Positions 28,951 to 39,112 are shown, counted from the stretch's first letter. The stretch: 64,000 bases of DNA from a virus (IMGVR_UViG_3300042398_001307:1-64000), one strand, 5' to 3'. Numbers and translations are program-made. Notes: a model not told the origin generated them from the sequence alone.

Positions 28951-29004
28951 CAGGCTCATTTTTTCTTGTTTGCAATAAGATTATGTTATGCTGAATTGAG
29001 CCTA
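28951..29004 (-). ncRNA. CAGCA-stem element E7: lone anticodon-like hairpin (TT-GCA-AA, Cys)
   Basis: TCTTA-TTGCAAA-CAAGA inside GGCTCA/TGAGCC stem. Confidence 0.7.
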
Positions 29005-29009
29005 AAATT

Positions 29010-29083
29010 TGGAGCGGACTACGAGATTCGAACTCGTTTAGCTAGCTTGGAAGGCTAGAGCACAACCCATATGCCAAGTCCGC
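29010..29083 (-). tRNA. tRNA-Gly(TCC)
   Basis: Cloverleaf, CCA. Confidence 0.93.
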
Positions 29084-29092
29084 AATGTTTAA

Positions 29093-29147
29093 CAGGATAC
29101 GTTTTATTTCACCAATTGAAAGTTTTGTATTTGCTGAATGTATCCTA
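29093..29147 (-). ncRNA. CAGCA-stem element E8 (short hairpin cargo)
   Basis: TAGGATACATTCAGCAA...GTATCCTG; TTTCA/TGAAA hairpin. Confidence 0.7.
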
Positions 29148-29152
29148 AAACT

Positions 29153-29228
29153 TGGAGCCTCCAATAGGAATCGAACCTACAACCCCCTGATTACAAATCA
29201 GGTGCTCTACCAATTGAGCTATAGAGGC
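29153..29228 (-). tRNA. tRNA-Thr(TGT)
   Basis: Cloverleaf, CCA. Confidence 0.93.
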
Positions 29229-29576
29229 ATTATTCTTTAAACTTTGTGTTTAGTGCCACACACTGTACAAGTGGCGTTAACTTTTTTGAAATCAAGGTTC
29301 ATTACTCGCATACCTTTTCCGTATGTTTTGTCTTGAAATTCATGATTACAATTGCATTTCTTTACTTCTACAGCCATTAGGCACCTCTTTTAATAAGAAT
29401 GTTAATACGATTTTGATATTTACGTTTATCACGTGGTCTAACAGTTTTTTCAACTAGTTCTTGTAATTTAGCTAAACTAAAATTACCAATTCTAACTCTA
29501 CCATTTTTAGTTTGATTAGGGTTAGCTTTTCTGTTTCCTTTACTAATAGTTGCCATTTGATGTCCTTATTATACTA

Positions 29577-29858
29577 TTACTTATTGTTGCTGTCAAGTGT
29601 TTTTATATTTTCTTCGATAAATTTAATTGCTTCATCGACTGGTAATTCACCCACTTCTACATGAAATACATTTCTGTCTTGTGCATGAGCACCATGTGAA
29701 TTAAATGCTACCTTTGGCAATTCTTTATCGTTGGTTGTACCTAACACTTCTTCAACAACTTCCTTTTTCTTACCGAAAATTGCATCCCAGTTATCTGCAA
29801 ACTTCTGCCTGTTAACTGGTCTAGCTGCACTTCCTTTGCCGCCATGCCATCCTGCCAT
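29577..29858 (-). CDS. Hypothetical protein
   Basis: GGKGS..RP..FADNWDAIFGKK; RBS. Confidence 0.55.
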   Translation of the reverse strand: MAGWHGGKGSAARPVNRQKFADNWDAIFGKKKEVVEEVLGTTNDKELPKVAFNSHGAHAQDRNVFHVEVGELPVDEAIKFIEENIKTLDSNNK

Positions 29859-30070
29859 TGTATCTCCGTTACATTTTTGTTGCCAATATAGTTTTGGCTA
29901 ATTCTTTTGTTGCGATTAAATCATTCTGACTAAATGAACTTTTAATCTTTTCTGAAAATTCAATTCTTTCTTCTATTGTCATTAATCTATAAATTATTTT
30001 TATCAATTCATAATCAAATTCAGTTGGTTCTTCTAAATTTTCAAACATAATAATTATCTAGTCAGTGTGT

Positions 30071-30403
30071 TTAAATTTCAGGTTGAGTTTTTATAAATCG
30101 ATCAATATTTTGAATCATCAATTGTTTCAACCTAACTTTATCATATTCAGGTTCTTTTAAACATTCTGGAAGTGTTAGCCTGAATAAAGTTTCTTTTTCT
30201 TCATCATATATGGATAATGCCCATATCTGTGTTCCACAGAATCCACTAGCAGCTAATAATATCATTTGCCACCCATCACCTTTAATAAAACTATGGGTGC
30301 GTTGCAATCGTGGTCCAACATTTGTTTTCAGAAAATCAAAAGTATTAGCTAATCTATTTTGATAATCTTCACCATAAGAATTGTTTCCGTGTATTACTAG
30401 CAT
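30071..30403 (-). CDS. Hypothetical protein
   Basis: GAGG RBS after tRNA-Ala. Confidence 0.5.
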   Translation of the reverse strand: MLVIHGNNSYGEDYQNRLANTFDFLKTNVGPRLQRTHSFIKGDGWQMILLAASGFCGTQIWALSIYDEEKETLFRLTLPECLKEPEYDKVRLKQLMIQNIDRFIKTQPEI

Positions 30404-30423
30404 TTGTGCCTCTGTGTTAAAAT

Positions 30424-30497
30424 TGGTGGAGACTAGGAGAGTTGAACTCCTGATAACGCCGTGCAAGGGCGTGGTTATACCATTTAACTAAATCCCC
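30424..30497 (-). tRNA. tRNA-Ala(TGC)
   Basis: G3:U70, CCA. Confidence 0.93.
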
Positions 30498-30500
30498 GGT

Positions 30501-31154
30501 TTATTTTAATTTTCGTCCCTTAACCCATCCTTCTGGTATTGGACTATTCTTTTGTATCTTTATATTTTTGTTAAGTTCTGCATTATGAATCCACATAGTT
30601 CCGTATTGAGAATTCTTTTCACCTGATTGTGAAATTGAACTTAACATACCTATTTTTCTCTTTGCTTCATCTGAATGAGTTTTACCAAAAAAAGTGCCTG
30701 GTTTATTGCTATACTCTTTCTTTTTTATATCACTAATGGTTTTAGAGTATTGTTGTTTGAATTCGTTATCTTCACGCAACTTTTTATGAAATGCATCAGA
30801 AGCTTTTTTCAGTGATGATAAAACTCTTGGATTATTTTTCCTACAATATCTATTGAAGCCAGATGAATTTACATAATCGAACCCACCATGACCACCTTCT
30901 TTAATATTATACGTATCATTCCTACGGATAAAATCTTCTGTAACTAATTCTCTCTCCAATTCATACATTTGGTCTGAATTGTCAAATACTTGTAAAATGT
31001 CTTTTGTAAAATTATCAATACCATACTTACCAATAGCATGTTTAATGTATTTTCCAGAACCCATATAACCATCATTTATATCTTTGGTTTTGTGAACACC
31101 AATATAAATTTTACCATTTGTATTGTTTGTTATTTTATAAACTATATATTTCAT
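30501..31154 (-). CDS. GIY-YIG (Seg-like) homing endonuclease
   Basis: YIVYKITN..KIYIGVH..DGYMGSG; GWVKGR. Confidence 0.88.
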   Translation of the reverse strand: MKYIVYKITNNTNGKIYIGVHKTKDINDGYMGSGKYIKHAIGKYGIDNFTKDILQVFDNSDQMYELERELVTEDFIRRNDTYNIKEGGHGGFDYVNSSGFNRYCRKNNPRVLSSLKKASDAFHKKLREDNEFKQQYSKTISDIKKKEYSNKPGTFFGKTHSDEAKRKIGMLSSISQSGEKNSQYGTMWIHNAELNKNIKIQKNSPIPEGWVKGRKLK

Positions 31155-31206
31155 AGTATTATTTAGCAAAGTTCGAGACTTACCTTCGAACTTAAAATAC
31201 TATTTG

Positions 31207-31292
31207 CTCCACCCGCGCGACTCGAACACGCATACGGTTTCCCGATTACAACTGATTAACAGTCAGTCCTCTTACCATTAGAGTAGGGTGGA
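31207..31292 (-). tRNA. tRNA-Asn(GTT), long variable arm, no encoded CCA
   Basis: CT-GTT-AA loop; TCCACCC/GGGTGGA; CGG-GAAA-CCG variable hairpin. Confidence 0.8.
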
Positions 31293-37487: not shown

Positions 37488-37506
37488 ATTATATAAACTA
37501 ATTAGG

Positions 37507-37580
37507 GGTGACCGATGGGACTTGAACCCATAAAAACCTGAATCACAATCAGGATCGTCTACCAATTCCGACACGGCCAC
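37507..37580 (-). tRNA. tRNA-His(GTG), no encoded G-1 or CCA
   Basis: GTGGCCG/CGGTCAC-C; T at -1; followed by CCT. Confidence 0.82.
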
Positions 37581-37833
37581 ACCTAATTAGTCTAATTTTA
37601 TATTAAAATGCATTAAACGAGGGAACACGAATGCTATACATTCTCCTGTCTCCGGCCCTCAAGCTTAACATCCTTCTGGCCAGTGATGTCAAGGTGACTG
37701 ATTAATGCACTTTAATATAAAATCATATAATAAAGCATACTACACGGAATTGAACCGTCTTCATTCAAGCCAGGAGCTCAAACTGTGATCCACACAACGC
37801 TGATCAGACGCTAATATGCTTTATTATATGATT

Positions 37834-37909
37834 TGGTAGGACCGCCGAGACTCGAACTCGAATTCCCGGATTAAAAGTCCGGTGTTCTAACCAATTGAAC
37901 TACGATCCC
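37834..37909 (-). tRNA. tRNA-Lys(TTT)
   Basis: Cloverleaf, CCA. Confidence 0.93.
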
Positions 37910-37975
37910 AAATTTTCTTGCCTTCTTTTTCTGTTTTTGTCTTTCGTTTCATAATTATTTCCTATGTTGTTATAG

Positions 37976-38038
37976 CAGGATACGTTTTTACTAGTTGAAT
38001 TAAAAGTTCAGTGTAAATTGTTTGCTGAATGTATCCTA
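37976..38038 (-). ncRNA. CAGCA-stem element E18: lone anticodon stem-loop CT-TTT-AA (Lys)
   Basis: TGAA-CTTTTAA-TTCA. Confidence 0.8.
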
Positions 38039-38070
38039 AAACTGTTTATGCTGTTAATTATACAGCATTT

Positions 38071-38397
38071 TTATACGTTGTCAATTATTTTATCTGGATA
38101 TTGTGCATCACGGCGTTCAATTTCAGCATATGGACTGTATCCAGGCTGTAATTCCGTGATATTAGTAAATCCATTGGTTTCTGTAATCAAACTATCATTA
38201 GAATCGATAGAACCACGATATTTACTACCATAACTACCTTCTAATTTACCAGTACTCGGATTAAGATCACCCCATTTAGTGTGATTACCACCGATAACTT
38301 CAATATAGTAAGTTTTACCAGTTCTGTATGAATAAACAACATGTCTACCGGTATCTTCAGTTTTTGTAAAAAATTTCTTTCGGGTTTCTTCGTCCAT
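38071..38397 (-). CDS. Conserved phage hypothetical protein
   Basis: KWGDLNP..GSYGSKYRGSI. Confidence 0.6.
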   Translation of the reverse strand: MDEETRKKFFTKTEDTGRHVVYSYRTGKTYYIEVIGGNHTKWGDLNPSTGKLEGSYGSKYRGSIDSNDSLITETNGFTNITELQPGYSPYAEIERRDAQYPDKIIDNV

Positions 38398-38415
38398 AAT
38401 AGTTTCCTTTGTGTT

Positions 38416-38489
38416 TGGTGCCTCCTGATAGAATCGAACTACCGCAACCAGTGTGTAAGACTAGTGTTCTCCCATTAAACTAAGGAGGC
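38416..38489 (-). tRNA. tRNA-Val(TAC)
   Basis: Cloverleaf, CCA. Confidence 0.9.
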
Positions 38490-38668
38490 TAAAATTGGTG
38501 CTTTCTTATTCCCGGCTATCACAGAGGTTGCCACTTGTACTTCATGGTTCTCAACTTGCAGGTTCTGGCGGAACAGAATTCTCGTATTGCCAACGTGCTT
38601 TTGGTTCAAAGCATACCACCCGTGTGTATCACCACACTTCTTATCCTCTGGGTCAGAGTATCCGTTGA

Positions 38669-38947
38669 TTAGACAGATCGTTCTTCAAGTACTTGTTGTT
38701 CCCATTTGCTTTTTAAATAGATTTTTTTACCATGCAACCAATATTCTTCTTCTGTGAAATTAGTAATAACAGCAGGGCCGTGTTCATTATGATATTTCCC
38801 ATTTTGACAATAACAAGTTCTGCGGCCATCATATCTAATAATTGCTGGGCCATCTGTATTATGCGATACCCCATTCTTCATAAAAACTACTGTTGTATCA
38901 GATACGCTAATAGTGAGTTCAGGATTTTCTGGGTTAATATATTTCAT
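38669..38947 (-). CDS. Hypothetical protein with HxxxGPA repeats
   Basis: HNTDGPA, HNEHGPA. Confidence 0.55.
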   Translation of the reverse strand: MKYINPENPELTISVSDTTVVFMKNGVSHNTDGPAIIRYDGRRTCYCQNGKYHNEHGPAVITNFTEEEYWLHGKKIYLKSKWEQQVLEERSV

Positions 38948-38972
38948 AATTACCAAATTGTAAAGTTAAAAT

Positions 38973-39048
38973 TGGTGCTACCGACTGGGATCGAACCAGT
39001 ATAGCTGGATTTTCAGTCCAATGCATGAACCATCACTGCCACAGTAGC
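38973..39048 (-). tRNA. tRNA-Phe(GAA)
   Basis: Cloverleaf, CCA. Confidence 0.9.
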
Positions 39049-39056
39049 AAAATTAT

Positions 39057-39112
39057 CAGGATACGCTTTTTCATTTTTCAAGAATGTTTTTTTAATTGCT
39101 GCATGTATCCTA
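39057..39112 (-). ncRNA. CAGCA-stem element E19: lone anticodon stem-loop CT-TGA-AA (Ser)
   Basis: CATT-CTTGAAA-AATG. Confidence 0.78.

Follow-up and report, generated by a model that had tools for sequence, protein, structure and literature searches.

What purpose is served by bare anticodon hairpins lying between the transfer RNA (tRNA) genes of a virus is the question raised by the contig IMGVR_UViG_3300042398_001307. Of this 88,249-bp IMG/VR viral contig, the first 64 kb (called the window hereafter, 64,000 nucleotides in total) were analysed. Five short elements in its tRNA island (E7, E9, E17, E18 and E19; Table 1) each consist of one copy of a recurring RNA element, here termed the handle, with a hairpin shaped like a tRNA anticodon arm as sole cargo. 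The original prediction proposed that such RNAs titrate or sense anticodon nucleases or tRNA-modifying enzymes. The present analysis gives a slight preference to a related reading, in which the elements are Y-RNA-like partner RNAs of a Ro60-like DUF2828/vWA protein encoded next to the island and display anticodon arms to bait or tether proteins that recognise the loops of such arms.

Each of the five hairpin strings occurs once in the window, on the minus strand (none of 100 shuffles matched), between the tRNA genes and outside all 26 tRNAs called by ARAGORN. Their description as the only cargo of short elements is upheld. The proposed stem of 4–5 bp with a 7-nt YU-NNN-AA loop was found in all five, with one correction, as the loop-closing fifth pair of E7 is an A-C mismatch, so that this stem amounts to 4 bp plus a mismatch. 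The five elements do not form a cloverleaf, in which acceptor stem, 3' end, D arm and T arm would surround the anticodon arm, and the Rfam tRNA model (RF00005) has no match over them at E ≤ 10. Hidden or odd tRNAs were ruled out by the lack of any ARAGORN or Rfam tRNA call over the elements. Short elements of this shape cannot decode.

The handle, present in 18 copies, is laid out as UUUU-AGGnnnn-nUn-CAGCAA, followed by the cargo and then by A-rich-nnnnCCU-G. Its 5' motif, TTAGRNTNNNTNCAGCA, has 18 matches in the window, all on the minus strand, as against 0.71 expected. The 18 starts examined comprise the motif matches plus two sites with two mismatches (27932 and 27714), minus two others (24127, and 27698-27714 as scored). 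All 18 are followed within 420 nt by a perfect 7-nt complement and then G, and since these perfect stems use 12 different sequences, pairing rather than sequence is conserved. Many elements begin 3–5 nt past the 3' end of a tRNA. Besides the five, there is a sixth short handle RNA with a hairpin that is not anticodon-like, and there are twelve siblings with larger cargo. About nine siblings contain a tRNA-like body whose parts (T arm, loop-closed acceptor stem, D arm) stand in permuted order, and three have other cargo. In element H5, a T arm is flanked by an acceptor-like stem ending in GCCA, which looks like a minihelix in normal and not permuted order. Intrinsic terminators were considered for the handles and rejected, as none of 15 terminator-like sites coincides with a handle and no such U-run follows them. 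Integron attC-like sites or transposon ends, judged by eye only, were likewise dropped, as the stems covary instead of keeping their sequence and the strand bias is absolute.

The same family was found in other phages. Scanning viral contigs with a 14-base degenerate handle led to at least 119 loci, among which 277 elements were listed by a detector that asks for the 5' motif and, no more than 260 nt further on, for a perfect 7-nt complement with a G after it. The pooled set comprises at least 558 elements (477 unique, with 65 distinct stems) in at least 202 phage loci. Several features not forced by the detector are conserved, namely the U-run before AGG, the A after CAGCA (91%), the A-rich 3' strand and UU after CCUG. 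Comparison of the aligned copies establishes that the 5' and 3' ends form a covarying stem of 7–9 bp, and that the N-U-N-CAGCAA bulge, the A-rich 3' side and the CCUG end make up a constant module with a variable module on top. Contigs of a related strain, obtained from two RNA libraries, join position 31872 to 32016; the stretch they skip, 31873-32015, corresponds almost exactly to a single handle element (H8, 32022-31879), and this shows that whole elements are gained or lost. The literature searches brought up no account of the handle family, nor of anticodon arms displayed in this way; the nearest is a Y-RNA guess for one Listeria phage.

If the arms matter as such, homologues were expected to keep the loop frame and to vary the anticodon, and this is the pattern seen: the loop stays at 7 nt, C or U at position 32, U33, A37 and A38 are kept, and positions 34–36 vary. 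Among 140 short homologues in the loci listed, 63 have a 7-nt loop, 45 of these of the form YU-NNN-R-N, compared with 10 of 2800 shuffled cargos. In the pooled set, 225 short elements (at least 202 loci) include 91 with 7-nt loops, of which 68 are canonical YU-NNN-R-N. The 63 seven-nucleotide loops have C32 in 45 cases, U33 in 56, A37 in 54 and A38 in 53, and the wobble position 34 is U or G in 55. When CTNNNAA heptamers were collected from short cargos without selecting for stems, 84 of 97 were flanked by at least four of five pairs in register (68 by all five); with the partner slid by 1–3 nt, pairing was found in 13, 4 and 6 of the 97. Flanks of 5 bp in register on CTNNNAA amount to the geometry of a tRNA anticodon arm. 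Orthologues of E9 display CAA in the window, GAA in a relative of 97% identity (L131) and UGA in one of 90% (L057), in which the stem has changed from CAAT/ATTG to CAAA/TTTG, a compensatory change. The arm of E17 is unchanged in L057, and that of E7 is identical in L131 and two further relatives (L132 and L133). By sequence and predicted pairing, the five elements are anticodon-arm mimics.

A second line of evidence links the handles to a protein. The gene for a 470-residue DUF2828/DUF7788 protein is present in all five large handle-bearing contigs, and in the window a handle without cargo occupies its 5' leader, behind a perfect promoter (27020-26993). The association was also approached from the opposite side, with 80 loci selected by the protein alone (69–100% identity). 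These contain 265 elements on the strand of the gene and none on the opposite strand; 261 lie upstream of the gene and four downstream. All 43 loci with at least 3 kb of upstream sequence carry at least one element, and in 62 of 73 loci an element ends no more than 80 nt from the start codon. Handles also occupy the leaders of more distant DUF2828 genes (65% and 44% identity), and one of these handles bears a GUU arm. At the level of genome comparison, it is established that the handle family is linked to the DUF2828/vWA gene, co-oriented with it and placed upstream.

This protein is a candidate Ro60-like partner of the handle RNAs. Pfam assigns only DUF2828 and DUF7788 to it. A classical Rsr partner was sought through the Pfam TROVE domain and rejected, as TROVE is absent from the contig and from five related contigs. 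For a profile comparison, a Ro60 alignment was built from the Ro60 proteins of mycobacteriophages Bxz1 and Myrna and their relatives. With hhalign, the DUF2828 protein matched it over 80 columns (87% probability, E=4e-6) that surround the DVSGSM MIDAS motif present in both; a broader DUF2828 alignment gave 86% over 37 columns and no extension beyond the MIDAS region. When residues 1-262 were searched in the Atlas with the protein's own families excluded, the nearest named clusters were all TROVE (0.86-0.82), which is below the 0.9 level and serves as a lead only. The family is large, with 710 cultured phage records and about 7,900 clusters at 50% identity.

A published case comes close to this arrangement. 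Protein CKA15_055 of Listeria phage cka15 (OR088597, L208) is homologous to the window protein, with 35% identity across 100% of the query (E=9e-81). According to the available part of the report on this phage, its best HHpred match is Rsr of D. radiodurans, it was detected in purified virions, and its gene follows, at a distance of no more than 2 kb, three non-coding regions with high transcription that the authors suggest may be Y RNAs (PMC12282133). Three handle elements were found at 3162-3428 of L208, 70–340 nt upstream of CKA15_055 and behind a promoter-like TTGACA-ATAAAT pair. That part of the report describes neither the handle motif nor anticodon mimicry, and the most abundant phage RNA region given there (26,236-26,727; 1989-2480 of L208), about 490 nt and non-coding, differs in having no handle and in lying away from the handles (PMC12282133). 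An RtcB-type ligase is annotated 1.3 kb downstream of CKA15_055.

As to their expression, eight perfect (12/12) sigma-70 promoters (TTGACA-16/17-TATAAT), all on the minus strand, are found within 14 kb (26993-40686). They precede E18 (38084-38057), E17 (35937-35910), element H7, a tRNA-Met gene, the DUF2828 leader and others, and those before E18 and E17 each end about 15 nt before the element; E19 is preceded by a promoter-like site with 10 of 12 matches (39152-39124). Small RNA genes of about 55–65 nt would be the best explanation of the five elements.

Which anticodons are displayed was assessed by setting the 68 canonical cargos against the tRNA genes of their own loci, of which 1665 unique ones were called. 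Lys-UUU and Thr-UGU dominate, with UUU in 20 of the 68 cargos (2.3% of the tRNA genes) and UGU in 15 (4.1%), followed by UGA in seven (2.8%); an A31-U39 closing pair is found in 51 cargos and in 24% of the tRNA genes. The commonest hexamer at positions 36–41, UAAUCA (11 of 68), equals the published cleavage site of AriB, the nuclease of PARIS, which cuts U36AAUCA41 directly before A41 and for which U39 is essential (PMC12409363, as far as its text was available); E17 carries this hexamer and E18 the Lys loop. For PrrC, the accessible text of PMC1950546 places the main cues within the anticodon stem-loop and reports cleavage of bare synthetic arm analogues, in agreement with the earlier statement that anticodon nucleases cut such loops. 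U36 or A36, each followed by A37, is present in 66 of the 68 canonical cargos, and 59% of the tRNA genes of these loci also end in U or A. A cargo arm identical to a phage tRNA arm of the same anticodon was found in only 3 of 66 cases. The Lys-UUU/Thr-UGU skew and the UAAU(CA) motif fit known targets of anticodon nucleases.

T5 offers a comparison from a cultured phage, as its tRNA-Lys, tRNA-Thr and tRNA-Asn variants counter PARIS (PMC12409363, available portion). As in the window, the phage RNAs belong to a tRNA cluster, and the anticodons Lys-UUU, Thr-UGU and Asn-GUU are shared. The T5 tRNAs, however, are complete, decode and escape cleavage by sequence change, whereas the handle elements cannot decode and many keep a UAAUCA of the cleavable type.

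The architecture resembles that of Y RNAs, which have a terminal stem, a GNCGAA/CGAA motif in a bulge and a same-strand position beside the Ro60 gene (PMC4201824 and PMC12135203, in the parts available). Ro60 homologues with Y RNA-like RNAs have been published for several phages, among them Thermus phage phiLo, in which Ro60 is accompanied by Yrl1 and Yrl2 (PMC12135203, same portion). Shared with the Ro60 (Rsr) system, to which YrlA and YrlB of bacteria and phages belong, are modular small RNAs with paired ends (a closing stem is present in 18 of 18 copies here), a motif in the adjoining bulge and a variable module able to mimic tRNA, as well as their location upstream of, and co-oriented with, a gene for a protein with a helical domain and a vWA domain. 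The differences are that the protein is DUF2828/DUF7788 and not Pfam TROVE, that up to 18 RNAs instead of one or two are present per phage, and that the accessible parts of those sources mention no bare anticodon arm in the role of displayed module. The Rfam YrlA model (RF02553) scored 41.6, 38.7 and 31.8 bits on siblings at 32136-32261, 28522-28634 and 35381-35492, and 48.9 bits at best, among the matches listed, in relative L057, all short of the 69 bits set as gathering score. In the alignment, T arm, closed acceptor, D arm and an anticodon-like stem fit, the Rsr-binding stems do not, and the Rfam scan gave no YrlA hit on the five short elements.

In the mechanism that these likenesses suggest, the constant handle module would dock the RNA on the Ro60-like DUF2828/vWA protein, and the variable module, a 5-bp/7-nt copy of an anticodon arm, would act as bait or tether for proteins recognising anticodon loops. 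The likeliest targets would be tRNA-cleaving defence nucleases of the host, similar to PrrC, RloC or the AriB of PARIS. The resulting ribonucleoprotein (RNP) might sequester or occupy these nucleases while the 26 tRNAs of the phage keep translation running, and the siblings with tRNA bodies might bait proteins that read the elbow or the acceptor. A bait or decoy function of the arms is plausible on the strength of their sequences.

A number of observations weigh against this interpretation. The Y-RNA motif GNCGAAN0-1G (CGAA) is absent from the handles, which have N-U-N-CAGCAA in its place. Pfam TROVE was not found in the DUF2828 protein, and sequence and profile searches of the PDB with it gave no Ro60. 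The hhalign match covers the vWA/MIDAS part only, the helical N-terminal half not aligning to Ro60, and a likeness in that half is weakly indicated by the Atlas lead and by one published HHpred statement. The five hairpins are unstable by themselves, with nearest-neighbour free energies of +0.1 to +1.7 kcal/mol and pair probabilities of 0.04-0.25, and the minimum-energy folds do not contain them, so that protein, stacking or modification would be needed for them to form. E18, E19 and E7 are covered by contigs that derive from two RNA libraries of a single sample; this coverage may stem from DNA carry-over and is no proof of transcription, ends or strand. The anticodon counts come from related sequences, so binomial p-values overstate their independence, and AT-richness favours U/A-rich loops. 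Cleavage by AriB additionally requires contacts with the D loop (PMC12409363, available portion), and an arm alone may therefore be bound poorly.

Several alternatives have to be set against these points. The hairpin RNAs might on their own titrate anticodon nucleases or tRNA-modifying enzymes, the handle merely stabilising their ends and no protein partner being involved. The shape of the arms, the Lys/Thr skew, the promoters directly upstream of elements and the published cleavage of bare anticodon-stem-loop analogues by PrrC (PMC1950546, accessible text) are all compatible with such free-standing decoys, but single-stranded CAGCAA and CCUG would be conserved without purpose in a mere clamp, the hairpins are too weak to fold alone, and the strict linkage and co-orientation with DUF2828, with a handle in its leader, point to a protein partner. 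Because the handle family is genetically tied to the DUF2828/vWA gene, the Y-RNA-like bait or tether ranks before free-standing decoys, which seem unlikely; of the decoy idea in the original prediction, the mimicry holds, whereas the elements turned out to belong to a family tied to this gene and not to stand free. Slightly less doubtful, and still improbable overall, is an engagement of the arms with the translation or tRNA-maturation machinery, that is, with enzymes modifying position 37 or 34 (t6A for NNU, i6A for NNA with A36A37A38), with synthetases or with the decoding site, serving the quality control of tRNAs or a regulation in the course of infection, much as has been put forward for Rsr with YrlA. 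The island does encode the peptidyl-tRNA hydrolase PTH2, a YqeY-like protein and a transfer-messenger RNA (tmRNA), and U36 or A36 precedes A37 in nearly all canonical cargos. This last pattern is weak evidence, however, as the tRNA genes of the loci end in U or A in more than half of cases and the cargo is AT-rich, and quality control leaves the UUU/UGU skew and the anticodon swaps between orthologues unexplained.

Two further explanations dispense with a role for the arms in trans. Punctuation of tRNA operons in cis, in the form of RNase sites or of translational operators through which the DUF2828 protein would act on its own and neighbouring genes, with the anticodon-like loops being incidental, would account for the position of many elements directly behind tRNA 3' ends and, in 62 of 73 loci, for the handle that abuts the DUF2828 ribosome-binding site. 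As it leaves unexplained the register-exact 5-bp/7-nt arms with their conserved positions 32, 33, 37 and 38, as well as the YrlA-like tRNA-body cargos and the dedicated perfect promoters, there is little to recommend it. Least credible of all are repeats derived from tRNA and now in decay, or else a selfish miniature mobile element that spreads in tRNA arrays, without a function of their own. Presence or absence of whole elements, as in the relative that skips 31873-32015, and the resemblance of cargos to tRNA pieces would be expected from such repeats, but compensatory stem changes, motifs conserved across protein identities from 97% down to 44%, and an absolute bias in strand and position would not, and the near lack of cargo arms equal to the same-anticodon phage tRNA arm (3 of 66) also speaks against them. 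The Y-RNA-like bait or tether thus keeps its place as the preferred reading.

Outside the phages, a resemblance to RNAs of Dictyostelia was noted. Within 13 kb, the matches of the Rfam model Dicty_Class_I_RNA (RF01414) are confined to four of the six short elements, with 29.3 bits for the sixth element (29093-29146), 29.2 for E19 (39057-39110), 23.1 for E18 and 20.2 for E9, against a gathering score of 41.5. In the part of PMC7919456 that was available, Dictyostelid Class I RNAs are described as 42–65 nt long; they share conserved ends, a covarying stem and a motif of 11 nt, and are called unique to Dictyostelia. Size (53–64 nt here), the short covarying terminal stem, an ACAGCAA core by the 5' strand, an A-rich 3' side, a terminal CUG and a variable remainder are common to both. 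On the other hand, the handles score below the gathering score and have a spacer between stem and motif that is one nucleotide shorter, and the Class I RNAs come from eukaryotic genes with a DUSE promoter and have Rnp1A/CIBP as known direct binder. The resemblance need not mean common descent. A pull-down with DdR-21 recovered Rnp1A/CIBP, GuaB, NdkC and DDB_G0281243, a protein of unknown function (bioRxiv 10.1101/2020.04.05.026054, partial text). If DDB_G0281243 is a DUF2828/vWA protein, the resemblance of the handles would become a shared RNP.

A broader picture that takes in these eukaryotic RNAs is possible and should be regarded as speculative. It would see a programmable display of tRNA parts, in which a ring-shaped Ro60-like DUF2828/vWA protein with swappable handle RNAs (bearing tRNA bodies, or arms that are mostly Lys-UUU or Thr-UGU and often contain UAAUCA) traps PrrC or the AriB of PARIS, the anticodon changing with the nucleases of the host. 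The Class I RNAs of Dictyostelium would then be Y-like RNAs of a DUF2828-type protein, perhaps DDB_G0281243.

Table 1. Positions of the handle RNAs, the DUF2828/DUF7788 gene and further features of the window.
Feature	Position	Strand	Remarks
E19 handle RNA	39057..39111	-	55 nt; hairpin CATT-CTTGAAA-AATG at 39072-39086; UGA, Ser-like
E18 handle RNA	37976..38037	-	62 nt; hairpin TGAA-CTTTTAA-TTCA at 37996-38010; UUU, Lys-like
E17 handle RNA	35827..35890	-	64 nt; hairpin TTTGA-CTGCTAA-TCAAA at 35848-35864; GCU, Ser-like
E9 handle RNA	31425..31487	-	63 nt; hairpin CAAT-CTCAAAA-ATTG at 31446-31460; CAA, Leu-like
E7 handle RNA	28951..29003	-	53 nt; hairpin TCTTA-TTGCAAA-CAAGA at 28964-28980; GCA, Cys-like
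Sixth short handle RNA	29093..29146	-	hairpin TTTCA-ATTGG-TGAAA; 5-nt loop, not anticodon-like
Twelve sibling handle RNAs	27492..35514	-	larger cargo
Element H5	34770-34855	-	minihelix-like
Handle without cargo, DUF2828 5' leader	26944..26982	-	ends 7 nt before AGGAG ribosome-binding site
DUF2828 + DUF7788 protein	25514..26926	-	470 aa; vWA, DVSGSM MIDAS motif; Pfam E=5.9e-21 and 8.7e-48
YqeY-like protein	24843-25283	-	adjoins DUF2828 gene
ARD/cupin protein	32347-32811	-	island open reading frame
PTH2 peptidyl-tRNA hydrolase	36312-36800	-	island open reading frame
Dual-specificity-phosphatase-like protein	39135-39665	-	island open reading frame
21-codon open reading frame	37887-37952	-	between E18 and the tRNA-Lys(UUU) gene
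Open reading frames resembling GIY-YIG homing endonucleases	30501-31169; 32885-33496		by eye only
26 tRNA genes	28748-43455	-	ARAGORN
Suppressor-like tRNA	43381-43455		anticodon CUA
Polynucleobacter-1 RNA	42078-42224	-	83.1 bits
tmRNA	43538-43837	-	92.5 bits; permuted (two-piece type)

The remaining features place the elements in their genomic setting. The contig has about 34% G+C and is estimated to be about 25% complete. Near-identical DNA is contained in lake-water metagenomes, and a close cultured relative was not found by DNA, as none of 480 records covers at least 80% of the query and the matches are only of tRNA size. The tmRNA and the Polynucleobacter-1 RNA both lie just upstream of the tRNA array. 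Between E18, with its Lys-UUU arm, and the tRNA-Lys(UUU) gene, an open reading frame of 21 codons with an AGGAAA ribosome-binding site (by eye) has AAA or AAG at six of its first 13 codons, and its end runs into the start of the tRNA gene; it might act as a leader or as a sensor of lysine decoding. As regards RNA repair, RtcB is encoded in one of five related contigs and the Rnl2 family in four of five, but not on this fragment.

Cleavage of tRNAs is a common anti-phage strategy, which viruses are known to answer with repair enzymes or with tRNAs that resist the nucleases. If the Y-RNA-like interpretation is true, an RNP that presents anticodon arms in isolation would add an RNA bait as the third answer. 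A testable lead on the partner and role of the Class I RNAs of Dictyostelium would also follow, and the phage system itself has culturable carriers in Felix O1-type coliphages, KVP40 and Listeria P100-like phages. For the DUF2828 protein family it would mean a function, and the Ro60/Y-RNA principle would come to include a second protein family, one marked by another RNA signature.

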